DNA of 64,000 nucleotides from a virus. This document shows, in pieces, positions 4,816 through 62,137 of the stretch. The translations under genes and the position numbers were made by a program. The DNA lies in IMG/VR virus record IMGVR_UViG_3300002835_000050, positions 32,001-96,000 of that record; one strand, written 5' to 3'. The notes beneath the pieces were generated by a model, which saw only the letters and a list, made by a program, of their open reading frames with translations, was not told where the DNA came from and searched no databases. How positions within the stretch are numbered: the stretch's first letter is position 1; every line of letters begins with the position of its first letter.

Positions 4816-4819
4816 TATT

Positions 4820-7800
4820 ATGAAAATAACTTGTGCTTTATCTCAATCTCAAATTGAGAAATTATATGCTAATGTTTATGGTTACATGCTTAATAAAGGT
4901 AATGATTTTGAGCCTAAACAATACATGATAGATTTATTTGATAAGCTTGCTAAAAAGAAAGATGTAGAAACTGCAGCTAAATTTTTGCAACAAGTACCAT
5001 CTTTAATTGGTACAGCATCATTTAGACCAGGTCTTGAACAGTTTGAGATTAGTACTGATATACTTAAACCATTAATAAATCAATTTAAAAGAGATGAGAA
5101 TGGTTTGGTTAATGTAGTTAAATATTTTAATCCAGTATTGGATCCTGAAGTAAAAAAAGAATTAGTTGAGAAAAAAGCTAATGATGCTTTTGATATTATT
5201 GAAGTAGATACAAATAGAATTATTACACAAGATTTTGATTTTAAACCTTATTCTGCATTATCTACAACAATGCAACAGTTTATTACTCAAAATCCAAAAG
5301 ATAAGACAAATGCAAGTGAAACTTTAGATCCTTCAAGAAAAGTTATTTATAATACACTAGATGCAATAAGATCTGTTGTTAATGATAATACAGCTTTTAA
5401 AGAAGTAGTTTACCAAGGTAAAGTATTAAAACTAAAACCTGTTAGACTAAATGAAATCAATCCTGTATTATTAGATAAAACAACTAATGCTCTATTAAAT
5501 AAAGCTGGTGCAATTAATGCTGGTAAAAAAGGTGTAGAATCTGTTACTCCTATAAATGAAATCTTCTTAATGGTTCTTTCAGATAGTAAAGGAGAATTAT
5601 TATACTTTACAGAAGATGGTAACATTACAACTCAGGATAAAGGTGGTAGATTAGTTTATCAGTTTTTAAGAGATGCTAGAAAAGATGGAAATAATATTAT
5701 GATAACTGATATGTATGGTTATCAAAATTCTATTTTAGATCCTGCTACTATTGCAAATAAAGCTGGAGTACCTGTTGAAGTTATTGAAGAGCAACAAAAT
5801 AAAGAATTTAAAGAACTTTATGACTATAGACAAAAGTTAATCAATAATGAAAAAGTTGATTTACTAGATATAGTAAGTGTAAGTAATGGTATTGCAGAAT
5901 ATGCTCCAGATAAATTAAATTTATCTAACATCTCTACAATCTTAAATGATAATGATGCAGCTATAAGAAGTATTGATACAGTTAACTCACCGCGTTCTGG
6001 ATTTATTGAAGGACAAGCTGTTATAACTATTAAAGGTGTTGAATATGCTGTTGATAGACCTAACATATCTTTAGACCTTATAAATAAAATTGCAACTGTT
6101 CTTACAAATAAAGACATTACAAATAAAAAGAAATATAGATTTGTTAGTACATTCTTAGCAGATAAAGCTTCTCCTTCAACAAGAAAACATAATATTACTT
6201 ATTTACCAAATAGTGATGTTTTACTATTTGAATATTCTGAAACTACTTTTGATGAAGGATATAGTAAAATGAAATCTGTAAACTTAGATAGTCCTACAGC
6301 AAAAAATGATATTGTAAAAGCTTTACAGTTTGCTTCTGGTAAAAACGGAAAATACTATACAGCTAAAATGACTATCAGTAATGAAGCACTAGATAAAGGT
6401 TATCAAGATTATAATTTGAATACAAATACATTAGATGATAATTATTCAAACTACATTGATCTATTAAAAACATTAGATAATACTAATATTAGTGTAGATC
6501 TTAATCCTGCTGGAAGAACTTTTAATAGTTACTTAAGATTTGCTTTACCAAATGAGTTTACAGAACAATTAGCAAATGCTCAAAAAAATACTGATGAGAT
6601 TGTTAAGGATGACTTATTTGAAACACTTTCTGAACCTGAAGATGAAAAACCTGTTTTTGGAGTTAAAGCAACTAGAGAAAAATTAATCAATGCTTTAGAA
6701 AAAAATGAAACAGTTAGTGGTACTATTTCTTTTGTAACAGGAAGTAAATGGTTATTAACAACACCAGAGGGTCAAGTAGTTGAGTTTTTTAATAAAGAAA
6801 ACAATATAACTAATGAAGATGTAATTAGTACAGCAACTCTTAATTTAATTCCAGAGATTACATTAGATAATAAACCTTTTACTAATGTAATTGAAGTTAA
6901 AGTTGGTAATAAATTTATTGGTTATGTAAGAGAAACTGAAGATTTTTCTAAACCAGTAAAACAAAAATCAATTGAGGAAATTGAAGCTGAGATAAATCAA
7001 GTTATTGATGGTAAAGGTGAAGCTACACCAGAAGATGATGGAGCAGCAAGTGTGTTCTTTCTTAGAAAAGGAAGTTTACCTGCAGATGTAACAGAGAAAC
7101 AAATCAAGGATGCTAAGAAATGGTGGACTAATTCTCCATTAAATAAACACATTGGTTTCAAAGAGGTAGCAAATATTGTTAACTCAGATGCTTATGCAAG
7201 ATTTACTAAATATGGAGCTGTCCTTAATGGAAACTTAGGTATTATAGAACTTGCTGATAAAGGTTCTATGGTAGATGTGTATCATGAAGCATGGCACGGG
7301 TTTTCCCAATTATACTTAAGTAAAGCTGAGAAAAAAGCTTTGTATAAAGAGGTACAAAAAAAGATGGGTTCTAAAGCTGACTTCTTTGATATAGAAGAAA
7401 ACTTAGCTGAAGCTTTCCGTGAATATGTAAGAACAGGGAAAGCTTTGAAAGGTGCTCCTAAGACAAACAGCATTTTCAAAAAGATCCTTAACTTCTTAAG
7501 AGAGTTGTTTGGAAAAGGTAGTGTTACTGATGTTACTGATATTAAAAGAGTTAATGAGTTATTTAATGAGCTATACTTAGGTACTGAACTTAATAAGTAC
7601 ACTCCTTCTATTGCTAATGTTATGTTTAATACATTAAATAGAAGCTTGGGTATAATCAAACCAGGTACTGCAGATGAACAAGTTCTTAATAGACAAGACT
7701 CTAATAAGTTAAAAGATAGTATGGATTCTATCATATCTGACATTGTAGATAATGAAGCTAAAAGAAGTAATAAGAAATCTGGTACTTTAAGTATATTATT

Positions 7801-10800
7801 AGACTCAAGAAACAGAGAACCTTTATACATACTAATTAAACAACAACTTAACAACAAATTAGAATTATCTAAAACACAATTACAGGATACTCCAAATAAT
7901 TTAGAAAATGCTCTTAAGAGAGAGATACTAGAAAATAGAATTAGAATTCTACAAACTGGTTTAGATAATTATGGAGACACTAAAGAAGGTTTAATTGGAT
8001 ACCATGTTGAAAATAGTACATATGACTTAATGAAACAAAAGTATACAGTTCTTGAGTTAGATGAAGAAGGTAATTTATTTGATCCTGCTAATATTAAAAA
8101 TACAGAAAGATACGGTGATAAAGAAGAAGGTCAAAAATCTTTGATTGAATTAGCAGGTAAAGAAACATTATACATTCTTAAAAGTTTACATAAAGGAAAA
8201 ATCAATAAGGATACAAACTTAATTGAGTTTACATATGATGATTTAGGTTTTAAACAGTTAGCAGATTTTAGATCTACTTGGAATACTGTAGTTAGAACTA
8301 TTGGTGGTGTACAAGATCCACAAGAAATGTATGATAGATTAGCTAATGAAGGTGAAACAGATTCTCAATTAAGACAATTAGTACAAACTAAATTAGCTAA
8401 TCCTAAATTAGTTACAGAAGATATTGCTAAGAATAATCAATATGAATTTAAAGCTACTACTTCTATTTGGCAAGATTTTAGTAAATCTAAGATTCCTTAT
8501 ATTCAGTTAACTATCCGCAAAACAGAAACTGGAGAAAAAGAAGTATATGATTATAATGGTAATCCAATACCAAATAAAAGCTATAAAACTTATGATTATT
8601 CAAGTGCTGTTACTGATGCTTCAATTGAAGCATATAATATCATTAGAAAATTTGAAGATAAATTTAAATCTAATCTGGATAATCCATATGTAGAAAGACT
8701 TGGTATTGACAATATACCTACATTAAACATTCAACAAGTTGTTAAAGACTTTGGTGTTAATGGTAAACTTAATACTGAAAAATCATTTGCTTTTGCAAGA
8801 GCTCTTGGATTTGCATTAGATGATCTTAGTATTATTAAAGGTGTGCTTAATAAAAAAGATAATAAAACTATAGAACAGTTTGGTTTATCATATATATTTG
8901 ATGTAGTTAAAAAGCTTAGTGATAAGGAAAACTTAGAAAATGTAAGCAGTGCAACTAAAAAAGCTATCTTAAACTTTAGAACTAATCCAATAAATACATT
9001 AATGAATGATATCCCAGCAGGGGTAATTGGAAACAGTAAAGTAAATCAAAAAAATAAAGTACTAGAAATAGCAAAATTACAAAGTAGATATGGTTTAGAT
9101 ACTTCTAACAACATGGTATTAAATGCTGAAAGAAATAGAGTATCTGAATTTATTGAGAATAACTCTATATCTAAACAAGTGTCTGCTTTAAATAATGCTT
9201 CAAAGCTTTCTGATTTATGGACATCTGATAAGTATCAACATATGGCTTATTTAGATCCTAGAATTAATGCTTATACAAAAAGATTAGGTATAATCAGATC
9301 ATTATATGATATGTCAAGTGCAGAGCAATTAAAAAGATCTAATAAATCTTTAACATTGTTTATGGACTCAGGAACTCAAATTGCTGATGAAGATGGTGGT
9401 TTAAATACTGCTAATTTAGATATTGCTTCTAAAAGACTTCAAGAAATGAATACTATGTTAAAAAGCGGTGTTCAAGAATTCTTAAGACATGCATCTAAAT
9501 CATCTGCATTTGGTGTTAAGATAGATAGTGGTATTATTGGTTCTCCAGATAAATCAGGATTTGATAATTATCTTTGGGTTGACAGTGATATGTTTGTTGA
9601 TGGTACTGCTTATGATTATGCATTCTTAACTCACTTTTTACCTTACATTGAAGGGGAAGCAGAAAGAATTTATAAATTTAGAAAGAACAAGACTGAGTAT
9701 TCTAAATATGCAGGATACAATAGAAAAGTTGAAGGAGGTTTTATGGCTGGAGAAATCTTTACTGCATTTGATGATATTATTGAAGATGATACAAAAAAAT
9801 TAATTTATAAAGCAATTGATGCTGCTATAGCAAACAATGAATCATTTGACTTAAGAACATACATAAGAACTCAAAATAATCCTTTAGCAACTACATTAAG
9901 AAACCAGGTAAGAAGTTATTTTGATAATCAAAGTAAAGTCAATTATAATAATTTACAAGAGTTAAAGTTTATTGATCCGGAGTTGATTGATAAAATGAAA
10001 AGTCTTAATACTCCAGAAGATCAGATTGAGAAAAAACTTGTAGAAGTATATACTTATAATTCATGGATTCAAAACTTTGAAACAGCTGTTTTATTTTATG
10101 GAGATATAGCACAATATAATCATGCTAAACAAGAACTACATAAAAGAAATACAGGTTCAACTTCTGGAGGACGCGCTTTTAGAACAGATGTTGCTGCAAG
10201 AAATTTTGTAAATTCTTTCTTAAGTGAAACTTCTTATGCAAAAAAATATAACAAGCCTACTATAAATTATAATGGTACATACAATACAGCAATTGTACAA
10301 GACATAAAAAGAACTTCAGAGTATTTAGGTGAAATTGAAAAAGGATTAACAGATGAGTATACTAAAAGATATGCTACTTCTAAAGATCCTAATAAAGAAG
10401 CTGAGATAAAACGTAGAGTTGCAATTGAGATTGCTAAGTATGTAGATATGGAAGAAGGAGATGGTCAAGGTTATATTAGTTTTGATGCATATAGAAATTT
10501 AAAATATCTAGAAAATTCATGGTCAAATGATCAAGAGATCTTATTCCAAAAAATTAAAAATGGAGAAGAAGTAAAAGCATCTGACATAAAAGAATTTTTC
10601 CCAGTATATAAATTACAAAACTATGGACCTTTAGCAAATAAGGAAATAGGTTTACCTATTACAGCTATGCATAAGTTTGCTTTATTTCCATTAATCCCTA
10701 ATGTTATTGCAGGATCAGATCTTGAGTCTTTACATTTGCAAATGATTGATAAAAACATTCAATATGTAACATTCCAAACGGGTTCTAAAGTAGGTAGTGT

Positions 10801-13800
10801 AACTTCTGCAGTTAATAAAGATGGTGATCCTGTAGCTGATGAAATATATGTTGGTGATCAGAAAAAATTAAAAGCTGATATAACTTTTACTCCTAATACA
10901 ATTTACTTAGAGTATCTTAAAAATGTAACTAATGTACCTAATGCATATAAAAATAAGACTGTATTCTCAACTCAGTTAAGAAAACTTATCTTAAAAGATA
11001 TGTATAAGGATAAAAAAATCATTAATGATGCTAATGAATCTGCAGTTAAAAGATATGAAAAAGCTGTAGACTCTTATAGCCAGTTATTGAAAATGGAGTT
11101 ACTACAAGAAGTTGATTATGAATATGATATAGAAACTGGTACTTATAAAGGAAACATCAGTAAGTTTTTAGAAGTAGTAGAAAGAGAATTAGGTAGAAGA
11201 AATATACCTGAGCACTTAATTGAATTTATAGGTTTAAATAGAGATACTACAATTAAAACAGATTTATCTTTACACTTAGTAGCAGATCAAATTGAAGCTA
11301 TCATTACAGGTTTAATTGAAAAAAGATTAATCAAACAAAAAGTTAAAGGTGAGGCTCTAGTACAAGTTGCTAGTTCAATGTCAAATGGGCTTTGGGATAC
11401 TAAACTTAAAAAAGGTACTAAAGAAGAGATTATGAAGTACTTAGGTACTAATAACTTACCTTTTTATAATAAAGATGCAAACACAGGTAAAACAAATGCA
11501 ATGAAAGTTGCTATTGCTTTACAAGGTGATTTCTCTAACTTGCTTAAACTTAATGCTTTAGATGGTCAACCGATTGCTACAAGAGCAAGATTAAATGATA
11601 TGATTAAAGAAGATGCATGGTTAGATATAGCTGATAACAGAAAGTCAGTTACTTTAGCTGCTGTACGTATTCCAGTACAAGGATTAAACTCTATGGAATT
11701 TATGGAAGTTTATGAATTCTTAGATCCATCTGCTGGAAATATTATCATTCCTCCAACTGAGATTGTTGCTAAATCAGGAGCTGATTTTGACGTTGATAAA
11801 TTGACTACATTCATGCCTGCAATTGATTCTTATGGAAATTTTGTAAAAACAGGATTAAGTAATGATGAATTGTCAATGAAGTTAGATGGTGTTGAAAATG
11901 AAAATGTAGGTAAAGGCTTAATTAAAAATCAAAAAGCTGCATTAGAAAATGAACTTATCATGGCTATTTCTGGTATCTTAGAATTATCTGATAATTATGC
12001 ATCACTGGTAAGACCAAATGATACATACTTAATGAAAGATGATATTGCTGATGAATTAGAAAAGTATGTTACTAGTTATGATAGATTCAGTAACTTCAAT
12101 AGAAAAACTCCAGGTTTCAGTCCAACAAAAACTCTTGAGGTAGGTTATAACTTACATAACCATGAGGTAAACATGATTGGTAAAAGAGTATTAGGTATGT
12201 TAGCAATAGAAAATTCATTACATCCAGTTATGAATTCAATTGGTTTATCATTACCTAAAACATATAAAAACTTAGAGTTTGACCAAGATTTAAACAGAAA
12301 TAAAGAAGGGACTACTGATTTTGAAATGAGATTATTTTTACCTCATAACAAAACAGAAGATGGTAGAATTTCTTTATCAGGTGTAGATACTGTTGATGGA
12401 CTTGACAACATAGGTGAAATGTTTTCACAAATGATGAATGGTGCTGTGGATGTTGAAAAAAATCCATGGATATTCTTTATACAAGGGAATTATGAAATGA
12501 TTCCAATGATTACTTTTTTATTAAAAGCCGGAGTCCCAAGAAAACAAGCTATATATTTTGTTTCTAATCCAATTGTAAGAGAGTATGCTAAAGAACAACG
12601 TAAACTTAAAAGTGCTTATGCTAAAATTACAGGAACTGTAGAAGAAAATTTTGGTAAAAGTTTTGTTAAATATACAGCTGCAACAAATGCTCTTACTAAA
12701 TTTGGAGTTTCTCAAGCAGGTAAAAAAATAACTAATAAAACATATTTTAAATCTGTTAATGATGCTGTAGCTAAACAAGGAGTATTAAATGATGAAGGTT
12801 TATTTGATGAGACTTCAATGAGAATGCTTATAGAAAATCCCGAAGCTCCTGAATATAAAGATCAAGCAATAGCAATGTTCTTACACTTTTTAGAATTAGA
12901 AAAATCTACAAGAGGTTACAATGCATTAAAGTTTGTAGCTAATCCAGATACTAAGACATCTAAAACTTTACAAGAGATTATAAGAAGAAATGTAGCTTTT
13001 GATGAAGCTGCTGCATTATCTACTTTAGAGAAAGGTTCTGTAAATGAATTATTAAACTCTGTATTAGGTTCTTTCTATAATAATAAAATCATAGGAGATT
13101 TAGTAGCCCCGGTGTTTAAATTAAGAAACAATGATGTAGTTACTGATTATATCTTAGATAGACTTAAAAATAATTCTTCTAGTATAACAAAAGCATTTGG
13201 TACAGATCAAGATGGTACAAGAAAGTTTATTACTTCTTTTAAAAATGCTATTCCTAATTATATCTTCCAAAATTACATGTCTAATTTTATAGATGAGTCA
13301 GGAGAAATAACTAGTATGCCTAAATACTATAAAGGAATTGAAGTTATTAATAAAGCTGGTGCTAAAGAGGGTGCTGAAATAATTGATAATAAACTTTATA
13401 TTGATAAGGCAAGATTAGAAAAAGAATATGCTGAAGAGTTATATGCTGCTTCTAATACAAATCCTGGTAACTATAATAGTGAAGGCTTAAGAGGTTTTGG
13501 TAATACTATAAACTTATTCAATACAGAATCAGCTTATTTTAAATATGTATTTGAAAGAGCTATTCAAAAAGATTTATACAGTCCAGAATCAGTTAAAGAA
13601 GATAAAGACTATTTAAGATTTAATGAGTTTCTTAAAGATGATAAACAAGCTTACTTAGCTTATATTAATCAAAGAGCACTTGTGTATGCATTTAATAGAA
13701 AGATTATTACAGGAATGGATAATGATTCTTATACTAACATGCTATTAAACATGATAAATGATTATCCTATTTTAGCAAGTAAATATAATATCATATCTCA

Positions 13801-15631
13801 ATTTACTAAACCTAATGTTAAAGAAAGTGTACTTTCATTAAATGATGTTAGTTCATTAAAAGATGGAGATACTGCTGAAATCTATTATCAAAATCTAAAA
13901 GACTTGGCGGATGAGACTGTTAAGAAAGTTTCTGATCCTATAGAAAATAGAAAGATAAGCAAGATGTTTGAAATGTTGCCATTAATTGCAATATATCAAC
14001 ATGGTATTGGTTATAGTAAAAATGGATTTAATGAAGCATTACCTTATGATAATTTCATAGAAGTTATGCAAACAGCTTCTGAAATTTTTATGAATAAGCA
14101 ATTAAATGAAGCAACATTAAATACTATATTTGATAAACTACTTGCTCAGAACTTTAAAACTTTTAAAGATTATACATCATCTCCGGAGGCATACAATAAA
14201 CCTACTACACCAACACCAGTAGATATTATGTCTCAAGAAGAAGCAGCGGCTATGTTAGAAGGAAAAGGTCTTAAAGTTACTGAAGAAGTTTCTACTACTC
14301 AACCTTCTACTAGTGTTAAAGAAGGTGTGTCAGTATTATTTGAATCTAACCCAGAATTAGCTAATGTTGGAACACCTCAGCAATACTCACAATATCTTGA
14401 TGGTATATTTCCGGATAGTAAAGTTAAAGATATTGTTTATCACTGGTCTGCAGGTTCACAAATATCTGAACAATTTGGAGATGACTTAGGTAGGGTAAAA
14501 GGTATTTGGATAAGTAAAGATCCTAATCAATGGAAAGACATTATTAAAAATAAAAGTAAAAGGCTAGGTATAAATCAAATTAAAAAACATGTTTTAATAA
14601 TAAATGCAAATAATATTTGGGTTGACTCAACCCTATCTAGTCCTGAAGGAAGTAATTTTCCTAAAGGTTATGATACCATAGCAGCATATGAAGAAGCTGA
14701 TTTAGCTTATTCTGGAGATTTAAAACCAGAATTTAAAAATATAGAAGGTTTTGAAGCAGTTATAAAATTAAAAAATCAAACTTATGAATTAGGTACTAAA
14801 CAAGATATAGAAGGATTTAAAAACTTTGTAGCTAATTCTATTCAACCAAGTCAAATTAGTACACAAGGTATTGTTAATAGACCAGATGTAAACTTGAGAG
14901 AAAAATACTTTAAAAACTCAGAAGTTAAAAAATTGTCTGAAGTATTAGGAGCTATTAGTAAATCTAATCATCCTCTAAGTACATTAGCTAAACACTTAAA
15001 TCAGTTTTCTAATATAAATAATGCTGACATAGCTTTAGAAGATGTTGATAATTTTGAAGTAACTGATGGTTTTACTAGTAATGCATACTATGATATCTAT
15101 TCCAATAGAGTTAGAATAGCAGAGTTTGCTAATGTAAACAATGGTAGTGCAGAAACATTATTGTTACATGAAATCTTACATGCATTATCATATAAAGCTT
15201 TAAGAAAAGGTGGTAACTATAATAAAGATTTCCAAAAGTTATATGAACATAGTATTCAACAATTAGGAGCTTTTGATGTATCTGCAAAAACAGGACCTTA
15301 TGCTAATTATACAATTGATGAATTTTTTGTAGCTTTGTTTACAGATGCTAAGTTCATTAAACAACTTTCAGAACTAGCACCTATTGATGTTAAAAAGTAT
15401 AGCAACTTATTACAAGAGATTGTTGACCACATCTTAAATTTACTTAAAATAAATAAAGGAGATTCAGTTTATGATCAAGCTTTTGCAGTAGCTACTAACA
15501 TACTTCAAGAAGAAAGTGACTATGTAAACGCTATGAATATGGCAGCACAAGAGCAAGATAATATAAATTTTGAAATAAATGCTCCTGAAGGTTTGCCTGG
15601 AATACCAAGAACATCAACAGATTGTCAATAA
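4820..15631 (+). CDS. Virion-packaged DNA-dependent RNA polymerase (crAss-like DPBB type) with accessory zincin and ART-like domains
   Basis: 3603 aa; RIPVQG followed by catalytic GADFDVDK (DFDVD at 11783-11797); DGQGY motif; HEAWH (7283-7297) and HEILH (15167-15181) zincin motifs. Confidence 0.9.
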   Translation: MKITCALSQSQIEKLYANVYGYMLNKGNDFEPKQYMIDLFDKLAKKKDVETAAKFLQQVPSLIGTASFRPGLEQFEISTDILKPLINQFKRDENGLVNVVKYFNPVLDPEVKKELVEKKANDAFDIIEVDTNRIITQDFDFKPYSALSTTMQQFITQNPKDKTNASETLDPSRKVIYNTLDAIRSVVNDNTAFKEVVYQGKVLKLKPVRLNEINPVLLDKTTNALLNKAGAINAGKKGVESVTPINEIFLMVLSDSKGELLYFTEDGNITTQDKGGRLVYQFLRDARKDGNNIMITDMYGYQNSILDPATIANKAGVPVEVIEEQQNKEFKELYDYRQKLINNEKVDLLDIVSVSNGIAEYAPDKLNLSNISTILNDNDAAIRSIDTVNSPRSGFIEGQAVITIKGVEYAVDRPNISLDLINKIATVLTNKDITNKKKYRFVSTFLADKASPSTRKHNITYLPNSDVLLFEYSETTFDEGYSKMKSVNLDSPTAKNDIVKALQFASGKNGKYYTAKMTISNEALDKGYQDYNLNTNTLDDNYSNYIDLLKTLDNTNISVDLNPAGRTFNSYLRFALPNEFTEQLANAQKNTDEIVKDDLFETLSEPEDEKPVFGVKATREKLINALEKNETVSGTISFVTGSKWLLTTPEGQVVEFFNKENNITNEDVISTATLNLIPEITLDNKPFTNVIEVKVGNKFIGYVRETEDFSKPVKQKSIEEIEAEINQVIDGKGEATPEDDGAASVFFLRKGSLPADVTEKQIKDAKKWWTNSPLNKHIGFKEVANIVNSDAYARFTKYGAVLNGNLGIIELADKGSMVDVYHEAWHGFSQLYLSKAEKKALYKEVQKKMGSKADFFDIEENLAEAFREYVRTGKALKGAPKTNSIFKKILNFLRELFGKGSVTDVTDIKRVNELFNELYLGTELNKYTPSIANVMFNTLNRSLGIIKPGTADEQVLNRQDSNKLKDSMDSIISDIVDNEAKRSNKKSGTLSILLDSRNREPLYILIKQQLNNKLELSKTQLQDTPNNLENALKREILENRIRILQTGLDNYGDTKEGLIGYHVENSTYDLMKQKYTVLELDEEGNLFDPANIKNTERYGDKEEGQKSLIELAGKETLYILKSLHKGKINKDTNLIEFTYDDLGFKQLADFRSTWNTVVRTIGGVQDPQEMYDRLANEGETDSQLRQLVQTKLANPKLVTEDIAKNNQYEFKATTSIWQDFSKSKIPYIQLTIRKTETGEKEVYDYNGNPIPNKSYKTYDYSSAVTDASIEAYNIIRKFEDKFKSNLDNPYVERLGIDNIPTLNIQQVVKDFGVNGKLNTEKSFAFARALGFALDDLSIIKGVLNKKDNKTIEQFGLSYIFDVVKKLSDKENLENVSSATKKAILNFRTNPINTLMNDIPAGVIGNSKVNQKNKVLEIAKLQSRYGLDTSNNMVLNAERNRVSEFIENNSISKQVSALNNASKLSDLWTSDKYQHMAYLDPRINAYTKRLGIIRSLYDMSSAEQLKRSNKSLTLFMDSGTQIADEDGGLNTANLDIASKRLQEMNTMLKSGVQEFLRHASKSSAFGVKIDSGIIGSPDKSGFDNYLWVDSDMFVDGTAYDYAFLTHFLPYIEGEAERIYKFRKNKTEYSKYAGYNRKVEGGFMAGEIFTAFDDIIEDDTKKLIYKAIDAAIANNESFDLRTYIRTQNNPLATTLRNQVRSYFDNQSKVNYNNLQELKFIDPELIDKMKSLNTPEDQIEKKLVEVYTYNSWIQNFETAVLFYGDIAQYNHAKQELHKRNTGSTSGGRAFRTDVAARNFVNSFLSETSYAKKYNKPTINYNGTYNTAIVQDIKRTSEYLGEIEKGLTDEYTKRYATSKDPNKEAEIKRRVAIEIAKYVDMEEGDGQGYISFDAYRNLKYLENSWSNDQEILFQKIKNGEEVKASDIKEFFPVYKLQNYGPLANKEIGLPITAMHKFALFPLIPNVIAGSDLESLHLQMIDKNIQYVTFQTGSKVGSVTSAVNKDGDPVADEIYVGDQKKLKADITFTPNTIYLEYLKNVTNVPNAYKNKTVFSTQLRKLILKDMYKDKKIINDANESAVKRYEKAVDSYSQLLKMELLQEVDYEYDIETGTYKGNISKFLEVVERELGRRNIPEHLIEFIGLNRDTTIKTDLSLHLVADQIEAIITGLIEKRLIKQKVKGEALVQVASSMSNGLWDTKLKKGTKEEIMKYLGTNNLPFYNKDANTGKTNAMKVAIALQGDFSNLLKLNALDGQPIATRARLNDMIKEDAWLDIADNRKSVTLAAVRIPVQGLNSMEFMEVYEFLDPSAGNIIIPPTEIVAKSGADFDVDKLTTFMPAIDSYGNFVKTGLSNDELSMKLDGVENENVGKGLIKNQKAALENELIMAISGILELSDNYASLVRPNDTYLMKDDIADELEKYVTSYDRFSNFNRKTPGFSPTKTLEVGYNLHNHEVNMIGKRVLGMLAIENSLHPVMNSIGLSLPKTYKNLEFDQDLNRNKEGTTDFEMRLFLPHNKTEDGRISLSGVDTVDGLDNIGEMFSQMMNGAVDVEKNPWIFFIQGNYEMIPMITFLLKAGVPRKQAIYFVSNPIVREYAKEQRKLKSAYAKITGTVEENFGKSFVKYTAATNALTKFGVSQAGKKITNKTYFKSVNDAVAKQGVLNDEGLFDETSMRMLIENPEAPEYKDQAIAMFLHFLELEKSTRGYNALKFVANPDTKTSKTLQEIIRRNVAFDEAAALSTLEKGSVNELLNSVLGSFYNNKIIGDLVAPVFKLRNNDVVTDYILDRLKNNSSSITKAFGTDQDGTRKFITSFKNAIPNYIFQNYMSNFIDESGEITSMPKYYKGIEVINKAGAKEGAEIIDNKLYIDKARLEKEYAEELYAASNTNPGNYNSEGLRGFGNTINLFNTESAYFKYVFERAIQKDLYSPESVKEDKDYLRFNEFLKDDKQAYLAYINQRALVYAFNRKIITGMDNDSYTNMLLNMINDYPILASKYNIISQFTKPNVKESVLSLNDVSSLKDGDTAEIYYQNLKDLADETVKKVSDPIENRKISKMFEMLPLIAIYQHGIGYSKNGFNEALPYDNFIEVMQTASEIFMNKQLNEATLNTIFDKLLAQNFKTFKDYTSSPEAYNKPTTPTPVDIMSQEEAAAMLEGKGLKVTEEVSTTQPSTSVKEGVSVLFESNPELANVGTPQQYSQYLDGIFPDSKVKDIVYHWSAGSQISEQFGDDLGRVKGIWISKDPNQWKDIIKNKSKRLGINQIKKHVLIINANNIWVDSTLSSPEGSNFPKGYDTIAAYEEADLAYSGDLKPEFKNIEGFEAVIKLKNQTYELGTKQDIEGFKNFVANSIQPSQISTQGIVNRPDVNLREKYFKNSEVKKLSEVLGAISKSNHPLSTLAKHLNQFSNINNADIALEDVDNFEVTDGFTSNAYYDIYSNRVRIAEFANVNNGSAETLLLHEILHALSYKALRKGGNYNKDFQKLYEHSIQQLGAFDVSAKTGPYANYTIDEFFVALFTDAKFIKQLSELAPIDVKKYSNLLQEIVDHILNLLKINKGDSVYDQAFAVATNILQEESDYVNAMNMAAQEQDNINFEINAPEGLPGIPRTSTDCQ

Positions 15632-55251: not shown

Positions 55252-55553
55252 AATCCAATTAAATTAGCTAGTGCAGAAAGTTCTTTTGAATGATTAATCT
55301 TTCTTTCAAAAATAATTACACACACTATGACTTCATTAACATGTTTACACTTTGCAACAATCTCTTCATAAGATTTAGATAGATTACTATGATTCTTAAA
55401 ACTAGCTAATGTAAGCTCAATCAATTCATCTCTTCTTTCATCTGTAATACCAAAATTAGTATACAAGTTGTCTGTGCTATCTTCAATAATAGCTACCTTC
55501 AATTCATTAGAAGGCTTTAATTCTTTTTTTCTCTTGAATAGTTTTCCTAACAT
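55248..55553 (-). CDS. Hypothetical protein
   Basis: Likely start MLGKLF at 55553; the track's extension runs into the tRNA-like element. Confidence 0.55.
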   Translation of the reverse strand: MLGKLFKRKKELKPSNELKVAIIEDSTDNLYTNFGITDERRDELIELTLASFKNHSNLSKSYEEIVAKCKHVNEVIVCVIIFERKINHSKELSALANLIGL

Positions 55554-55609
55554 AATTCTAAGTTTTAAATAAATAAATAAACAAATGCTGTCTGTTCCAG
55601 CTGTCTTAG

Positions 55610-55710
55610 AAGTGCAGACAGGATTCGAACCTGTAACCAGTTTTAACAACTAGTAAGTTACCTCTGTATTTCTACATTCAACTGCTGTATACCAATTCCG
55701 CCACTGCACT
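55610..55710 (-). ncRNA. tRNA-like RNA with non-canonical anticodon/variable region
   Basis: Acceptor AGTGCAG/CTGCACT; Leu-type D arm TGGCGGAATTGGTA; T arm ACAGG-TTCGAAT-CCTGT; ~50-nt centre with no 7-nt anticodon loop. Confidence 0.7.
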
Positions 55711-55711
55711 A

Positions 55712-55918
55712 TAATATACCCTGTCACTCCAAGTATGTGAATGTTAGATTTTACTTCCTTTCTACCTATGGCTAAGGCATCTACACTGAAGACTATAGAT
55801 AACATCTCTCTACAAACAACTCCATCTTGGTATAGATTCTAACAATGTGACTAATATTCACCTTTAATACCTATTATACTGAGGATTGCTATTTGTTTGC
55901 TTCAAGCAGGGTAATATT
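55712..55918 (-). ncRNA. Candidate structured RNA upstream of the tRNA-like element
   Basis: ORF-free; closing stem TACCCTG/CAGGGTA; inner stems TGTTAGA/TCTAACA and ATCTATA/TGTAGAT. Confidence 0.4.
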
Positions 55919-57855
55919 TTACTTACAATTAGCACAAATTACTGGTACACCCGCAGGCTTACCATTCTTTGGCATTGTCATAAGTTTTGCTTCATCTTCT
56001 TGAAGATAAACTTTTTCTCCTGGTTCTAAGTGTGCTCCACATACTGCACATGTTTTACCAAGATTTTTAAATCCATTTGCAATATCATTAGCAAGAGTTT
56101 TATGTACATGTGCCATTACTCTTCAGTTTCAGAATTAAACTTAGATTCAATTACACGCTCAATCATACTAACATGATATATAGCATCAAGTGCAGTGATT
56201 TTACCTGTTGTAACTTCAACTTGAATTAAATCATTAACAGATGTATCAACTAATTCTTTAACTAAATTAAATAAAGCTTCATTCTTTTTTTGTGCTACTT
56301 CAGCTTTTTGGAACAATTGTTCATTTCCATGATGCAACTTGAAATTCTTTGCACATAAGCTATCATAAGCTTCTCTAAGTTCTTCAAATGCTTGTTTATA
56401 GTAAGCAGCATTTTTTACTGTTTTTTTAGGTACTGTTGTAACCACTTTTTTAGGTCTACCTACTTTTCTCTTTTCCATATGTCTGGTTTTTATAAATTAC
56501 AAAATTTCTGATATTACTATGTAAACTACTAGTAATATTGCTACTGCTACAAATATAACTGCAGCACATCTGATTGGTCTCATTGATCTTTCATAGTTAA
56601 TTTCATTATCAATGTGCATAATCTCAACCATAAGATCATTCTTATACATTTCTGCAGTCATAGGATCTGCTCCTATATCATGAACCATACTTAAATCAAT
56701 CTTTCTCAGCTTCTTTTTCTCTTCTAGAGCTATAATCTTTTTTCTAAACATTTAACATAATTTAACAATTAGTAATTTCTTGTTTAACTTCTTCCCAATA
56801 TTCATATTCTAAAGTTAATTGATTTAAAACATCTAATATCTCATCAACTACTATTAATGCACATTTTTTTCCAGCTTCATATCCTATTTCACAGGTAGTA
56901 TATTTTGCACCTGCATATTCTTGATATTGATAGGTTTGTTTACGCATTTTATAAAACAATTCTTTTGCTTTTTCTTTTGGTGTCATAATTATAATAATTT
57001 AAGCAAGAAAAGCTCCAATCGGGAGCCTTTCTATATATCCATTAGGATACTGTACATCATAAGTATAATCAAAGAACACTTTAATAATCTTAACCACTTC
57101 AATTCTCTTAGTAATACTAAATGAAGGTGTGATAGCTATATACTGTCCTTCTTGCATACTAGTTATATCTATGTGATTTTCTCATCTGTCTTTGATTGTA
57201 TTTCTGTGCCTTAGCATAGTTACAACCGTGTGATGTAGTTCCACAAGATGACATAAATAATGCCATAATAAACACAACAATCATTGTGTATAAATAGTAC
57301 ATACCTACTGATGCACCGCGTGTTTGATCTGAATTTCTCATTTCTTTTGATTTAAAATAGATTGCCCATAGACTAATGCCATAAGCAATCCCGTGATTAA
57401 TAATGTGTCCATTACTTTCTAAATAAAGGATAACGGAGATTTATAACAAATATCATAGATGATAGTAGTAAGCCTACTATTGAGAACACATAAGCCTCAA
57501 AAGTCTCAGCTACAATAAGTTCAAATGTACATACAGCACACATGATAGTAATTAATAGATTAAATACATGATTCATAGTTCATAGTTTTAAGTAGTTTAT
57601 TTATTTGTACATATATCCCCAATAGTGAGCTTTATTGTAGTTAAATTTAGGAACATTATAATTTTGCCAAGTTAATTCTTCTTCAACTTCTTCTGTATAT
57701 AGTAAATCAAATTCTTTTGCAATCCATATTAAATAATGTATGTATTCATGACTTCTTTCATTAAGCATTTCTTCAATTGTAATGCCTTTAAATTTACCAA
57801 ACTTGAATGAGCTTTGCATACCTAGTATTGGTTTCTTTTTTATTTCTTTATTCAT
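55919..57855 (-). other. Cluster of small putative early/middle genes (55919-56116 Zn finger, 56116-56478 with GRPK AT-hook-like start, 56497-56751 TM, 56762-56986, 57159-57341 lipoprotein-like, 57601-57855 FGKFKG-motif protein)
   Basis: Co-oriented short ORFs; CAVC/CANC, KVGRPKK, LFMSSC lipobox, FKFGKFKG...YLIWI. Confidence 0.6.
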
Positions 57856-58415
57856 AAGATATAGTTTTAAGAGATTAATAATTTATATTTAGGGCTAATG
57901 CCTTATTCCGGAAGATGGCTTTATGTTACTCTTATAGGATATAACACTAATGATAAGACTAATAGTAATAGTAATACTAACAGTAGTGTATATAGACATA
58001 GTATTAGCTATATACTAATAAGTATATAAGCATATTAACTAAATCTGTTACTGAGGCTAATGGCATAGATATGAGGATAGTTTTTCACTCAATCATCCTG
58101 TAACCCTTATGTACACTGCATTTCCGTAAACTTCACTACAGTCTTAGCAAGCATTAAACAGATGTTGTAAGCATCTATTTACATACTATGATTATACTTT
58201 AAACATACTCCTTATATACTGTTTATTTGTAAACATTTGCTACATACAACAGCAAATGTACCCTAAACACCCATATTTTTAAACTAGCACATTTTGTAAC
58301 TAACTGATTATCAGAACAAAAGTGCGGTTGCTCCACCGTGTGGAGACAAAATATTTGCTATGGACAACAGTATGTGTATTCTTGAGAACAATAATAGTTT
58401 AAAGTTGTATGAGGA

Positions 58416-58427
58416 TGCCGCAGGCTA
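58416..58427 (-). promoter_or_regulatory. GNA-loop hairpin repeat, copy 1 (TGCC-GCA-GGCTA)
   Basis: One of four intergenic copies. Confidence 0.55.
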
Positions 58428-58429
58428 TC

Positions 58430-58458
58430 AAAAAAAACAACACACTCCGTAGAGTGTG
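58430..58458 (-). terminator. Intrinsic terminator with UACG tetraloop
   Basis: - strand CACACTC-TACG-GAGTGTG followed by a U-tract. Confidence 0.75.
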
Positions 58459-58466
58459 TGTTAATC

Positions 58467-58754
58467 TTAAACAGTAATGTTGCTGAACAAGTGTGCAAAA
58501 TCTGCTACTGTAGCAATCTTAGCATCTGTACCGTTCAACAATGTGATCCAAACAGTGTCTCCATCTGCTTGTAACTCAGCTTGGTAAGTAGCACCAACAG
58601 TCAAACCGTTCTGTACACTTTTCTCCCAAACTTTAGCAAACCAAACTGTACCGTTAATGTCAACAGTGCAAGTACGGAACTTAGTACCGTTAGTGTTTTC
58701 CTTTACTGCATTACCTACAGTTTTTAATACGCAAGATGTTTTTTGAGTTTCCAT
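58467..58754 (-). CDS. Small beta-rich protein (OB-fold/SSB-like?)
   Basis: Start METQKT at 58754; own repeat element and terminator; codons skewed to AAC/TTC/CGT/GGT. Confidence 0.6.
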   Translation of the reverse strand: METQKTSCVLKTVGNAVKENTNGTKFRTCTVDINGTVWFAKVWEKSVQNGLTVGATYQAELQADGDTVWITLLNGTDAKIATVADFAHLFSNITV

Positions 58755-58821
58755 AATAATTTGTTTTAATGGATTAATAAATATAAATATCCAAAACAGT
58801 ATAAAGCTGTATAAGAGAGGC

Positions 58822-58833
58822 TGCCGAAGGCTA
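58822..58833 (-). promoter_or_regulatory. GNA-loop hairpin repeat, copy 2 (TGCC-GAA-GGCTA)
   Basis: Lies between the terminator of the upstream gene and the next gene. Confidence 0.55.
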
Positions 58834-58854
58834 CTATGGAAAAAAAAGAGGAAC

Positions 58855-59043
58855 TTAATCCTCTTTGTCTTCATCATACTCAAATGTACCTGTTTCAATG
58901 TACTCTAATATCTCTGCTTTAAAAGCAAAGTCTACTACCTTACCATCCTCAAAGAATAGAGCATAAGTTTGTCTACCTTCTACTTTGTCTTGTGGTACAA
59001 TAGTTCCTGATACTAAGTACCAAATAAAAATAATTGTTTTCAT
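58855..59043 (-). CDS. Small hypothetical protein
   Basis: Stop lies inside terminator hairpin AAAGAGGA-TTAAGT-TCCTCTTTTTTT. Confidence 0.65.
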   Translation of the reverse strand: MKTIIFIWYLVSGTIVPQDKVEGRQTYALFFEDGKVVDFAFKAEILEYIETGTFEYDEDKED

Positions 59044-59084
59044 ATTATATAGTTTAAAATTTAATAATAGTATAATGCTGTATT

Positions 59085-59096
59085 TGCCGTAGGCTA
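59085..59096 (-). promoter_or_regulatory. GNA-loop hairpin repeat, copy 3 (TGCC-GTA-GGCTA)
   Basis: Same context as copy 2. Confidence 0.55.
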
Positions 59097-59118
59097 TAAT
59101 GGATAATAAAAGAGGATG

Positions 59119-59304
59119 TTAATCCTCTAATAGTATCATCTTGTTCTTGTGCTTAACCTGCCACTCTAGTGCAAGGCTATTGCGGTAATCCTTAATGTCT
59201 TTAGGATCTAATTCTTTTAAAGCAACAAGCACCTTATGGTCTACCTTTGTTTTGAGAAGTATCATAATACCTTCAATTTCTTCAATCATGTTCTGTACAA
59301 TCAT
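59119..59304 (-). CDS. Small hypothetical protein
   Basis: Stop lies inside terminator AGAGGAT-TAAC-ATCCTCT-TTT. Confidence 0.6.
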   Translation of the reverse strand: MIVQNMIEEIEGIMILLKTKVDHKVLVALKELDPKDIKDYRNSLALEWQVKHKNKMILLED

Positions 59305-59357
59305 ATCACTATAGTTTAATTAATACTAAGAATAGTATGAAGCTGTAGAGAATAAGA

Positions 59358-59369
59358 TGCCGTAGGCAA
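59358..59369 (-). promoter_or_regulatory. GNA-loop hairpin repeat, copy 4 (TGCC-GTA-GGCAA)
   Basis: Heads the first leftward gene after the strand switch. Confidence 0.55.
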
Positions 59370-59621
59370 GAATGTTTCTCCTGGTAAATAAAACACCAAA
59401 CATATTCTGGTATGCAAATCCTCTCTGTAAAACAATGGGGGGTACCCAGTCCCTGGGTTGGGGGTGGGGTGTGTTCTATAGGGACCCACCTCTAGCCCTC
59501 ATATACTATAGTTCTATTTACCCTTCACAATCCCTAACATACTATAATCCCATATCCCGTAATTCCCCATCTAGCCATACCCCTGGGGCACATGAACTTA
59601 GATAATAGACCGGGGATAATC

Positions 59622-59672
59622 TGTAACAAATTTATGCTATATTTGTCACAAACTTATACTATATTTGTGACA
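59622..59672 (+). repeat. 22-bp tandem repeats with TGTnACA palindromes and TATATTTG promoter elements
   Basis: TGTAACAAATTTATGCTATATT / TGTCACAAACTTATACTATATT / TGTGACA. Confidence 0.7.
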
Positions 59673-59684
59673 TAATTATTTAGT

Positions 59685-60179
59685 ATGATAGTAACACCAG
59701 AACTTAATGTTATATCTATAGAAGAAGAGCTAGCCTTGTTAGAGTCTCTGGCACAAGCTGAAAAAGATAGTAAGTTATCTAATGATAGAACTCTAGTAAG
59801 ATATGGTAATTCTATTTATAGTAATGAGAAGTTAGATCCTATTCCTGAGTATCTACTAGATCTATGTTATAGGTTGATAGATAAAAAAATACTAGATGCT
59901 TTACCAGAAGATATAACAGTTAACACTTATTATCCAGGAAACAAGATGGTTCCGCATATAGATAATGTAGATGCTGGACCTGTAATAACTGTGCTTAGTT
60001 TGTTATCAGATGCAAAACTTATTTTGACATATGGAACAAAAAGAGAAGTTATAACTTTACCAGCAAGATCTATTATACAGCTTAAAGGTGTATACAGAAC
60101 ACATTGGAAACACAGCATAGAAAAACTAGAACACAAAAGAATATCAATAGTATTTAGACAATTAGGAAAAAAAATTTAA
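59685..60179 (+). CDS. AlkB-like 2OG-Fe(II) dioxygenase
   Basis: VNTYYPG..MVPHID...LSLLS...WKHSI...RISIVFR (HxD...H...R). Confidence 0.85.
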   Translation: MIVTPELNVISIEEELALLESLAQAEKDSKLSNDRTLVRYGNSIYSNEKLDPIPEYLLDLCYRLIDKKILDALPEDITVNTYYPGNKMVPHIDNVDAGPVITVLSLLSDAKLILTYGTKREVITLPARSIIQLKGVYRTHWKHSIEKLEHKRISIVFRQLGKKI

Positions 60180-60190
60180 AATTATTTAGT

Positions 60191-60823
60191 ATGGCACATA
60201 TAGAACATAACTTCTTTCCTCTTAAAGTATTTGTAAGAAATGAATACATGTATCAACATACTAAAGGTCAAGGAGAATTAACACCGGGGGTAATTATATC
60301 AGTAAGATGTATGCCGGGGCAAGCAGCATTATTTCAGGTATTGTTAGAAAATGGTGTACTTAGAGATAAGTTACCAAGTCATGCGTTACTACATGAAGAA
60401 CAGATGCCGCAACCAGATCTACCATTTCACTACTTACAGATATGGAATTGCTTCTCTTATAACTTTACTCTACTACACTTGTCATATTTGTACGACACTA
60501 GGGTAGAAGTCTACATGAAAGATCACAAGTTCTACCCGGGTAGTTATTATGCTACTATCAATTGGGGGTCTAATGATCACAACACAGATCTATCTTTAGC
60601 AGAAGATCCATTAGAACATAAGAGTCATCACATCATTTTACTTGACAATGGTCAAATAGCATTACAACCTAACAACAGAATTAAGTGGTCTGAACCTAGC
60701 TTTGTAACTAAACCATTTCCTGAAAAACCAGATTACTTAGTTAACAAAGACTACTATAATTGTGAAGGATTTGAAAAATGGAGTACAGAAGATTCAGAAA
60801 GAATGTTCTATGACAATGAATAA
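60191..60823 (+). CDS. Conserved phage hypothetical protein
   Basis: LQIWNCFSY...HKSHH...LDNGQIALQPNNRI. Confidence 0.7.
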   Translation: MAHIEHNFFPLKVFVRNEYMYQHTKGQGELTPGVIISVRCMPGQAALFQVLLENGVLRDKLPSHALLHEEQMPQPDLPFHYLQIWNCFSYNFTLLHLSYLYDTRVEVYMKDHKFYPGSYYATINWGSNDHNTDLSLAEDPLEHKSHHIILLDNGQIALQPNNRIKWSEPSFVTKPFPEKPDYLVNKDYYNCEGFEKWSTEDSERMFYDNE

Positions 60824-60909
60824 TTTAAGGGTATAACCATAAAATAAAACTATATTAACCTGATAAATTAAATATTTTACTTATCTTTGTAAGGTTAAAA
60901 CCTTAATAT

Positions 60910-61383
60910 ATGATATATTTAATTTCACATGAATATCAGTTTGTAAAAATTGGTTACACAAAAAATATAAATAAAAGACTTAAACAATTACAAACTTCAA
61001 GTCCTGTTAAATTAGAAGTACTTCATCTTATAGATGGAAATGTAACTTTAGAAAAAGAATTACATCTTTTATTTAAAGATTTAAGAACTAGTGGTGAATG
61101 GTTTAAGTTTGACAATTCAATACTAGAATACTTTATAGATAAAGAATGTTTACTATGGCAATATGGTTTTACATCAGAAGAAAAAATTCCTATTACAGGA
61201 TTAATAAAACATGAAAGACTTAATTGTAATATGTCACTCAATACACTTAGTGAAATGTATGGTTGTAGTACTCAATCTATGCATGAAATAGAAAGAAGAG
61301 AAATGCAAGGTTCATTAACTATTGGTATATTATATAAAATTGCTAGATTGTTTAATAAAAAATTTGAATATAGATTTGTTTAG
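60910..61383 (+). CDS. GIY-YIG (T5orf172-like) domain fused to XRE-type HTH
   Basis: IYLI...VKIGYT...RLKQLQT...EKELH...GEWF; C-terminal MSLNTLSEMYGCSTQSMHEIE. Confidence 0.8.
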   Translation: MIYLISHEYQFVKIGYTKNINKRLKQLQTSSPVKLEVLHLIDGNVTLEKELHLLFKDLRTSGEWFKFDNSILEYFIDKECLLWQYGFTSEEKIPITGLIKHERLNCNMSLNTLSEMYGCSTQSMHEIERREMQGSLTIGILYKIARLFNKKFEYRFV

Positions 61384-61514
61384 GTATAACCTTAAATAAA
61401 ATTTACAATATAGTACTATTATGTAAAGTATATTTGGTATAATATGTAAAGTATAGCATGCATTTGTAAGTTATATTTGGTGTTATGCATATTATAATAT
61501 ATATTTGTAGTATA

Positions 61515-61716
61515 AGACGGGAGACAAGCTAATAGGATAAAACCGTTAGGATGCCTATTACAAGTTCTCCCTAAAGAAAGTAAAAACAACTGGCTCACTA
61601 GACAACTTAACATTGTGAAGGAGGGAATGCAGGGTGGTTAAGCATCCGTGGCATCGGGTAGACTACTGTAGAGATAAGTCTATAACAAGAGAAGGTAGGT
61701 GGGAGCTCTTGTTTTT
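61515..61716 (+). ncRNA. Candidate ~200-nt structured ncRNA
   Basis: TATATTTG promoter element at 61500-61507; stems GGGAGAC/GTTCTCCC, TAATAGG/CCTATTA, TAGACT/AGTCTA; terminator AACAAGAG/CTCTTGTT-TTT; no ORF. Confidence 0.55.
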
Positions 61717-61786
61717 ATACCCGTATTAATAAGTATACGGTAAAAATTATTAATTTTGCAGTATATAGGGTATTAAATAGTAGATT

Positions 61787-62137
61787 ATGAAAAAAGTATT
61801 ATTATTAGCATTAGTGATTTTCTTAACTGGATGCAAGAAAGATGAGTACACATTACCATGTACTTGCAAGGCAATGTATCTATGGGAGAGAAGGTACAAG
61901 GACTCTATTGATGTTCAAAGTGACCCGGGTTGGTGGAATGGTGATGGATATGACAACACAAGACCTAGGTATGTTTATACATATCATTGGGACACTGTAT
62001 CAAGTCCTATCTATAATAACACGGCAGACTATCCATTCTACTGTAAAGATACATTCCCATTGGGATATTGGATAGATACTGTGAATGAATTTAATATTTA
62101 TAGCTACAGTAGAAAGAGATTATTTTGTATAGATTAA
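61787..62137 (+). CDS. Lipoprotein
   Basis: MKKVLLLALVIFLTG-C lipobox followed by KKDE. Confidence 0.7.
   Translation: MKKVLLLALVIFLTGCKKDEYTLPCTCKAMYLWERRYKDSIDVQSDPGWWNGDGYDNTRPRYVYTYHWDTVSSPIYNNTADYPFYCKDTFPLGYWIDTVNEFNIYSYSRKRLFCID

Follow-up and report, generated by a model that had tools for sequence, protein, structure and literature searches.

This study asks what four near-identical DNA mini-hairpins are doing between the small leftward genes of an uncultured crAss-like phage. The window, by which we mean the whole stretch of 64,000 nt that was analysed, covers positions 32001-96000 of IMG/VR virus record IMGVR_UViG_3300002835_000050, and the genome behind it is a single 114,550-bp phage contig of 31% G+C. 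The initial annotation of this stretch had read the hairpins as candidate N4-style promoters for a crAss-type virion RNA polymerase (RNAP), and to our knowledge no promoter has yet been defined for an enzyme of that kind. Comparison with related loci indicates that the sites are very probably conserved, structure-constrained cis-elements associated with promoters. What they do is a more tentative matter: we propose, as a joint claim whose chances we put somewhat short of even, that the hairpin is a promoter accessory, that it acts as a DNA hairpin on the template strand and that it is read by the virion RNAP.

The four sites and their boxes

We searched both strands of the genome for GCCGNAGGC and found four matches, all on the + strand of the window, against 0.03 expected; none of 100 shuffles gave four, and no match beyond these sites exists on either strand of the 114,550 bp. 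The enrichment that had been expected here only is therefore what the scan returned. With the preceding T included, the sites start at 58416, 58822, 59085 and 59358, exactly where TGCC-GNA-GGC had been annotated; all are intergenic, lying between minus-strand terminators and small minus-strand genes, and the core varies at the middle loop base only (GCA, GAA, GTA and GTA). Mini-hairpins H1 (GCC-GCA-GGC, 58417..58425), H2 (GCC-GAA-GGC, 58823..58831) and H3 (GCC-GTA-GGC, 59086..59094) have stems of 3 bp, and H4 (TGCC-GTA-GGCA, 59358..59368, with its GCCGNAGGC core at 59359-59367) has a stem of 4 bp. When the + strand of the genome is scanned for any C-GNA-G hairpin with a stem of at least 3 bp, five are found, four of them the window sites.

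Each site has the features that define mini-hairpin DNA, d(C-GNA-G): a GC stem of at least 2 bp, a G-N-A loop and a C·G closing pair. Such hairpins closed by C·G are extraordinarily stable (PMC13037366, PMC3201870). For example, d(GCGAAGC) melts at about 76 °C, and the closing pair strongly governs stability (PMC13037366; PMC3201870). The complementary strand, or an RNA copy, would carry a C-(T/U)NC-G loop, which lacks such special stability.

A second element lies toward the gene at each site, as the initial annotation had noticed. This box has the + strand consensus AGT(A/T)T(A/G)A(A/T)G(C/T)TGTA, or TACAGCnTnATACT in gene sense, starts at 58396, 58798, 59069 and 59334, and was found nowhere else in a whole-genome search. 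All four boxes are oriented as minus-strand elements. Box 4 (59334..59347; + strand AGTATGAAGCTGTA, gene sense TACAGCTTCATACT) ends 29 nt before the ATG of gene A, box 3 (59069..59082; + strand AGTATAATGCTGTA, gene sense TACAGCATTATACT) 25 nt before that of gene B, and box 2 (58798..58811; + strand AGTATAAAGCTGTA, gene sense TACAGCTTTATACT) 40 nt before that of gene C, giving a range of 25-40 nt ahead of the start codons. Box 1 (58396..58409; + strand AGTTTAAAGTTGTA, gene sense TACAACTTTAAACT) is a degenerate copy that heads a stretch poor in open reading frames (ORFs). Every hairpin is upstream of its box, and the gaps between box and TGCC, in box order 1-4, are 6, 10, 2 and 10 nt; at H3 the 2 nt separate box 3 from the invariant T that precedes the hairpin. 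The hairpins themselves lie 55-75 nt upstream of the start codons. The + strand is the template for the leftward genes, as had been stated, with small minus-strand genes downstream of every hairpin-box pair except that of the ORF-poor unit.

Box arrays and stem covariation in related phages

Relatives were gathered in three ways, through a neighbouring gene, through an alignment of the RNAP and through gene C. A search for related loci with a single segment of the virion RNAP as query gave no relative, and the alignment as query succeeded. Megablast and tblastn searches of a phage collection with the region and with a 1936-aa neighbour as queries gave no match, and a pattern scan of IMG/VR for box plus hairpin returned, among the matches listed, mostly chance singletons.

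The anticipated conservation in relatives takes the form of a hairpin kept across about 20 related loci with compensatory stem changes. At least 10 different inner stems are found there. Those seen are GCC/GGC, TGCC/GGCA, TGCT/AGCA, GTGC/GCAC, GCAC/GTGC, GTCC/GGAC, TGC/GCA, TGAC/GTCA, TGT/ACA, TGTCC/GGACA, ACC/GGT, GGC/GCC and TGGC/GCCA, together with the longer CTTGC/GCAAG, CTATGC/GCATAG and TTTTTCC/GGAAAAA; most stems are 3-4 bp long and a few 5-7 bp. Differing stems occur even inside one genome, as in relatives G018, G007, G004 and G013. In an alignment of 32 sites anchored on the loop, both sides have changed at stem pair 2 in 12 sequences and at stem pair 3 in 14. These sites score 0.53 for covariation, whereas shuffled versions give 0.16 (0 of 500 as high) and slid partners at most 0.14. 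Judged by these comparisons, the element behaves as a structure, with compensatory stem substitutions around a constant triloop that amount to real covariation.

The loop is constrained in a different manner. Its sequences are GAA (21), GCA (19), GTA (9), AAA (5) and GGA (3), so that the centre is free (A, C, T and rarely G) and the first base is G, with A in its place at roughly 10% of sites; across lineages, 31 of 32 sites are closed by C·G. When GC-rich triloop hairpins upstream of boxes were counted without prior selection, R-N-A loops lay on the template strand in 58 cases and on the opposite strand in 3, and these three are alternative registers of the junction word described next or of a terminator. 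The 5' flank AAAGC/T and the invariant T before GCC are also conserved.

In the relatives, tiny leftward genes with a box and a terminator apiece form arrays of 4-11 cassettes beside the same 12-nt junction word, ATGGGGGGTACC. Their box, in template-strand orientation, is a conserved AGT-W-W-N and then a lineage-specific 8-mer. The 8-mer is AAGCTGTA in the group of the window phage, which extends to RNAP identities of about 47%, and in the same orientation it is ACACAGTA in G002, GAGAGGTT in G011, AAAATGGT in G013, GAGTTGGA in G019 and GGAAAAATA in G004. Like the second box in the window, which is confined to its region within the genome with gaps of 2-10 nt, the boxes of relatives are restricted to the array, 1-3 kb per genome. 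No -35/-33-type partner lies at a consistent distance from the boxes, and the abutting 8-mer is lineage-specific. Late genes are preceded by a separate dispersed motif, TTTT[TA]GTATATT, which unlike the box 8-mer is common to the lineages.

Because its word changes between lineages, because it serves a few tiny genes in a single place without a -35-type partner and because the late motif is separate and dispersed, the most economical reading makes the box a core promoter for an enzyme that the phage encodes. Where a phage encodes its own promoter recognition, the specificity word would be expected to change with the lineage in this way (compare T7, T3 and SP6). The first genes to be expressed need an enzyme that is already present, which therefore points to the virion RNAP.

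The hairpin is distributed differently from the box. A GC-rich triloop hairpin lies within 20 nt upstream of 62 of 107 boxes, and hairpin-bearing boxes make up 4 of 4 in the window genome, about 2 of 11 in G018, 2 of 6 in G011 and 3 of 9 in G013. Since roughly half of the relatives' boxes have no mini-hairpin, the hairpin is not the promoter determinant; it is the box that is general, and the hairpin is an accessory tied to particular genes. In six lineages (G018, G005, G011, G013, G002 and G031) the hairpin is found only at the two cassettes furthest from the junction, except that in some of them the junction cassette bears one too; the other boxes adjoin the terminator of the preceding cassette.

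Gene C (58467..58757, minus strand, 96 aa) is consistently tied to the hairpin. All of its orthologues have a hairpin-bearing box directly upstream, and the next unit is also hairpin-bearing; for gene B, by comparison, the orthologue's box lacks a mini-hairpin in G018, G005 and G002. Gene C is conserved across phage lineages and has no Pfam or PHROG family. Its product is a small protein with a predicted OB fold (pLDDT 81.5), and the nearest structures are single-stranded DNA-binding protein (SSB), PriB, the OB domains of RPA/Teb1 and IF1 (Foldseek probability about 1, E 1e-3 to 1e-2; VIA Z 6-7.7). These scores, computed on a model, establish the fold and not the function.

The virion polymerase and the readings of the hairpin

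The proposed reader of the sites is a virion protein of 3603 aa (4820..15631, + strand) whose RNAP core is of the crAss-type two-barrel kind. Searches of this ORF against Pfam, PHROGs and the PDB (phmmer and profile search) gave no match, and fold comparison alone identified it as an RNAP. An AlphaFold model of residues 1728-2619, built with 38 homologues (pLDDT 82, pTM 0.81), has as its top Foldseek match in the PDB the phi14:2 gp66 virion RNAP (6VR4, 6vr4_A; E 1e-28, TMq 0.63 over 881 columns), followed by QDE-1 and plant RDR2. The core thus matches two-barrel enzymes and not T7-like ones. The motif DFDVD lies at residues 2322-2326 (DNA 11783-11797), and SGADFDVDK is invariant among 18 homologues. 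More than 1000 homologues, 3000-4200 aa long, occur on contigs of up to about 120 kb. The model therefore indicates that the phage encodes a crAss-type two-barrel RNAP within a giant protein, and the earlier suggestion of a virion RNAP of double-psi beta-barrel fold holds on the 6VR4 match and the invariant motif; gene context suggests that the protein is carried in the virion. A search of the genome for sigma-70 region 2 found none, and a scan for a T7-like RNAP with PF00940 (RNA_pol) was uninformative, the control sequences also being unmatched. Two further features of the giant protein were observed. The HExxH-like VDVYHEAWH at residues 818-826, in the N-terminal third, is invariant, and the variable ends of its relatives carry assorted domains (NADAR/DUF1768, 2OG-Fe(II) oxygenase, ART-PolyVal).

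We therefore considered how the box and the hairpin might work together. In the mechanism that we favour, the four sites would be the upstream halves of bipartite, phage-specific early promoters. The core box, in gene sense the lineage-specific 8-mer plus a conserved WWACT about 25-40 nt ahead of the start codon, would determine the start position and the enzyme, most likely the injected two-barrel virion RNAP. The second part, 2-10 nt further upstream, would be the 3-4-bp GC stem with a G-N-A triloop, stable on the template (+) strand only. On extrusion of the inverted repeat, or during transient single-strandedness as the DNA enters, the template-strand arm would remain folded and could offer the polymerase, the OB-fold product of gene C or a host SSB a fixed junction of single strand and duplex beside the box, much as in N4, where proteins that bind single strands act as co-activators. 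The hairpin would then strengthen or time particular units, namely gene C and the next unit in all lineages examined and all four units here. Hairpin formation in vivo, the start sites, the early timing and the identity of the polymerase are thus proposals of this mechanism, with the timing suggested by the position and size of the genes.

The obvious precedent is phage N4, in which an injected RNAP uses hairpin promoters. The template strand of N4 promoter P2 reads ...CAGCC-AAAA-GAAGC-GGA-GCTTC (PMC13492108), and at the N4 early promoters gyrase-driven supercoiling extrudes a hairpin with a sheared -10G:-12A pair that is stabilised by EcoSSB (PMC4496689). The likeness of the window sites to N4 P1-P3 and gp50 (PMC4496689, PMC13492108, PMC13037366) extends to a template-strand hairpin upstream of the first-expressed genes, a phage-injected RNAP, a G-N-A triloop with C·G closing and sheared G:A pairing, an A-rich 5' flank on the template strand, few sites confined to one small region and a link to single-strand binders. 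The differences are as clear. The N4 enzyme is a T7-like single-subunit RNAP, whereas that of the window phage folds as a two-barrel enzyme like phi14:2 gp66; stems measure 5-7 bp in N4 and mostly 3-4 bp in the window family; and N4 promoters require a loop-centre purine (-11) and conserve -10G and -8G, whereas the centre in the family is A (21), C (19), T (9) or G (3). The N4 geometry is fixed, with the +1 C 11 nt from the loop centre, whereas here the distance to the box ranges over 2-13 nt, and in N4 the hairpin is the promoter, whereas here a separate box is general and many boxes have no hairpin. The N4-style reading therefore survives in part, for the template-strand position, the G-N-A loop with C·G closing, the association with promoters and the confinement to the early array, and gives way on stem length, spacing, the free loop centre and the hairpin as determinant. 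Membership of the N4 type fails on stem length, loop-centre purine, constant geometry, universality among early promoters and polymerase family.

Phi14:2, whose gp66 (PDB 6VR4) is the nearest structure to the polymerase core, offers a second comparison. The two phages share the polymerase fold (E 1e-28), a virion-borne enzyme and a cluster of small early genes; unlike phi14:2, the window family has a clear box and hairpin, and its 3603-aa protein has large extra N- and C-terminal parts. The phi14:2 enzyme transcribes single-stranded DNA (ssDNA) or denatured DNA and not double-stranded DNA (dsDNA) (bioRxiv 10.1101/2020.03.07.982082). Because that enzyme works on ssDNA only and the early genes of phi14:2 have no common motif, the start of transcription on an injected duplex genome calls for an explanation. 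Full-text literature searches found no description of hairpin or other early promoters for crAss-type virion RNAPs. A further, more distant likeness is to the AR9 non-virion RNAP (nvRNAP), a two-barrel-type phage enzyme for which promoter bases are read on the single-stranded template strand; as far as the accounts consulted go (PMC5449584 and PMC9209446, via PMC10770324), it differs in having a dedicated subunit and uracil-containing DNA, in using no hairpin and in not being virion-borne.

The same palindrome could act as duplex DNA, as the operator of a dimeric regulator (from phage or host) that controls the box promoters, for instance in the shut-off or autoregulation of gene C, with no hairpin ever forming. 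This would account for a short palindrome right upstream of a promoter-like box, for the conserved AAAGC/T flank and invariant T and for the tie to particular genes and not to all boxes, and symmetric half-site changes would also fit a palindrome bound by a dimer. We consider it improbable: one genome has many stems (GCC and GTGC in G018; GCC, TGCT and TGCC-AAA in G007; GCAC, GTGC, GTCC and TTTTTCC in G004), so that a single regulator would need unrelated half-sites of varied length. The asymmetric centre is kept one way relative to the gene (58 versus 3), which a symmetric dimer does not need, and the conserved G..A loop and C·G closing pair are stabilisers of a single-strand fold. It is similarly unlikely that host RNAP reads the boxes, with TATACT as a -10/-7-like element, the hairpin as a mere upstream modulator or post-terminator insulator and the virion RNAP uninvolved. 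No conserved -35/-33 element lies at a fixed distance, the 8-mer abutting WWACT varies by lineage whereas the late motif is common to the lineages, the boxes are restricted to 1-3 kb per genome, and no sigma factor was found in the genome. The case for host RNAP is that TATACT matches TATAAT at 5 of 6 positions and that a sigma-70 scan flagged TCGGCA-18-TATACT at box 2; WWACT also resembles the TATATT of the dispersed late motif, and the promoters defined so far for phi14:2 are host-type only (bioRxiv 10.1101/2020.03.07.982082).

Mini-hairpin DNA is also documented at replication sites, where it is poorly bound by SSB. The complementary-strand origins of G4, St-1 and alpha3 and RSF1010 ssiA, with its CCGAAGG, carry it at primase entry sites (PMC13037366), and the CCGAAGG core is that of H2, while GCGAAGC occurs exactly in G018. 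The window sites might accordingly be primase or primosome entry sites by an origin in the ORF-poor stretch, or might mark replication-priming transcripts; they lie where the strands diverge, next to conserved non-coding DNA that contains repeated words, the phage has genes for primase, DnaB-like helicase and DNA polymerase, and the OB-fold gene is always adjacent. The known single-strand initiation sites share the structural motif but serve single-stranded replicons and primase recruitment, whereas here, in a dsDNA phage, every hairpin is gene-oriented and 2-13 nt upstream of a box, mid-array sites included, and all hairpins are on one strand, which makes a replication role quite unlikely. 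We regard as highly improbable a function in RNA, in which transcripts that read through or start upstream would fold into a C-UNC-G stem-loop that serves in processing, stabilises the 5' end or signals pausing or termination to a specific polymerase. Complementarity is equal in the transcript sense, the sites come right after intrinsic terminators that may be leaky, and GCUUUU or GCUUUUUUU comes after the hairpin, in gene sense, in several lineages; no U run is present at the four sites of the window. No special stability is known for UNC triloops on 3-bp stems, whereas in DNA the optimum is G-N-A with C·G (PMC13037366, PMC3201870). The sole non-Watson-Crick stem (L040:3459, GCT-GCA-GGC) has a T·G wobble on the template that would be a C·A mismatch in RNA, and hairpins at the junction or first box have no upstream gene on that strand: GGGG-GTA-CCCC in G001 and L040, CTTGC-GTA-GCAAG in G013 and CTATGC-GAA-GCATAG in G019.

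Several observations weigh against the reading that we favour, in which the virion RNAP reads a folded template-strand accessory. The hairpin is not required for promoter function, given the boxes that lack it, and its spacing to the box varies between 2 and 13 nt across the family. TATACT resembles a bacterial -10 element, which would allow host RNAP. The sites used for the pair counts were picked as perfect hairpins, so that the 100% pairing of the inner three positions partly follows from the choice; the diversity of the stems and the one-sided orientation of the loops are independent of that selection. Generic DNA folding energies were rejected as a strand discriminator, being weak and equal on both strands (nearest-neighbour folding of 21-mers, -1.5 to -2.8 kcal/mol). 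The special stability of the hairpin rests on the literature and is not reproduced by the generic energy model. Stems of 3-4 bp are also shorter than any proven to extrude from duplex DNA (5-7 bp in N4). In phi14:2, the only crAss-like phage whose early transcripts have been mapped, these have no common upstream motif (bioRxiv 10.1101/2020.03.07.982082), and we found no C-GNA-G hairpin on either strand of its positions 1-14000; the hairpin element, on these sequences, is not general to Crassvirales.

The larger idea, that a two-barrel virion RNAP with no relation to the T7-like N4 enzyme has come convergently to open and enter dsDNA with extruded template-strand C-GNA-G hairpins, a lineage-specific box and an early OB-fold protein of the phage that binds single strands, is in our judgement doubtful. 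The family nevertheless supplies candidates that can be cloned: a lineage-specific box, a template-strand mini-hairpin and an OB-fold gene behind a hairpin-bearing box. If the proposal were true, a promoter would be defined for the first time for a virion RNAP of Crassvirales, and there would be a second, convergent instance of promoters recognised by structure, with two unrelated injected polymerases using DNA secondary structure as a promoter element; the candidates would also provide defined promoters for the study and engineering of crAss-like phages.

Cassette layout and features around the junction

Read from right to left on the minus strand, the order hairpin, box, gene, terminator is repeated for genes A, B and C. 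Gene A (59119..59304, 61 aa) is without a known family and has orthologues in relatives L041 and G026, and gene B (58855..59043, 62 aa) has orthologues in eight relatives; Pfam and PHROGs searches with genes A, B and C gave no match. Intrinsic terminators on the minus strand follow gene A (59111..59128, a 7-bp stem and then a T run), gene B (58845..58866) and gene C (58440..58459, an 8-bp stem and T8). The scanned stretch has 6 terminators against 1.3 expected, and the three of the cassettes are canonical, with a GC-rich stem and a T run. An Rfam scan of 55000-62000 gave nothing at the hairpin sites.

The fourth unit consists of hairpin 1, the degenerate box 1 and about 400 nt without a convincing ORF (58000..58395, minus strand). 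It contains words that are conserved across lineages, namely a GTCTCCAC..GTGGAG-like palindrome, CTGATAATCA and two copies of CTGTTGTnnnTAGCAAAT(A/G)T, the CTGTTGT...AGCAAAT repeats. This unit may be a non-coding RNA or a replication origin.

The cassettes begin a minus-strand block that encodes the DNA polymerase, the primase, helicases and a recombination exonuclease. The + strand block encodes the terminase, structural proteins and three giant ORFs. The divergent strand switch between them, at about 59400-59680, is immediately right of the cassettes. There the junction word ATGGGGGGTACC (59435..59446, + strand), which contains GGG-GTA-CCC, opens a stretch of about 190 nt (59435-59620) that is G-rich and then C-rich, with runs of G and then of C, within a genome of low G+C. 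Of 27 records of relatives, 14 retain the word at this junction, distant ones included; another word, CCGGGG(A/T)A, follows 150-190 nt beyond it. The first array box of relatives is found 7-10 nt left of the junction word, and its counterpart in the window (59409-59429) is degenerate. RNAalifold gave no consensus fold for the G-rich junction element across 14 lineages. The element may be a genome end or packaging site, an origin or a structured RNA.

The first rightward gene, which encodes a 2OG-Fe(II) oxygenase (59685-60179), is immediately preceded by a tandem 22-nt repeat (59619-59662). Each copy contains TATATTTG, which matches the Bacteroidota -7 consensus TAnnTTTG. Genome counts of TAnnTTTG (110 and 93, against 80 and 93 expected) give no clear enrichment, and a host promoter of Bacteroidota type was not established by this count.

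The dispersed late motif, TTTT(T/A)GTATATT, has five matches in the window phage, all on the + strand, at genome positions 13428, 74285, 96198, 99549 and 106563, of which 74285 and 96198 are 42285 and 64198 in window numbering and the last two fall beyond the window; the reversed control gave zero. The matches lie 25-35 nt before + strand genes, usually right after a terminator, and the motif is present in distant lineages. It probably represents a host-RNAP class for late genes.

Two other features were observed nearby. An Rfam tRNA match lies at 55610-55710 on the minus strand (37 bits, E 4e-5), with no ARAGORN call. On the + strand, 60191-60823 encodes a 210-aa phrog_3704 'ferredoxin' present at 90-97% identity in over 440 IMG/VR contigs, a large share of them unrelated to the window phage outside this gene. 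It is a widely exchanged auxiliary gene.

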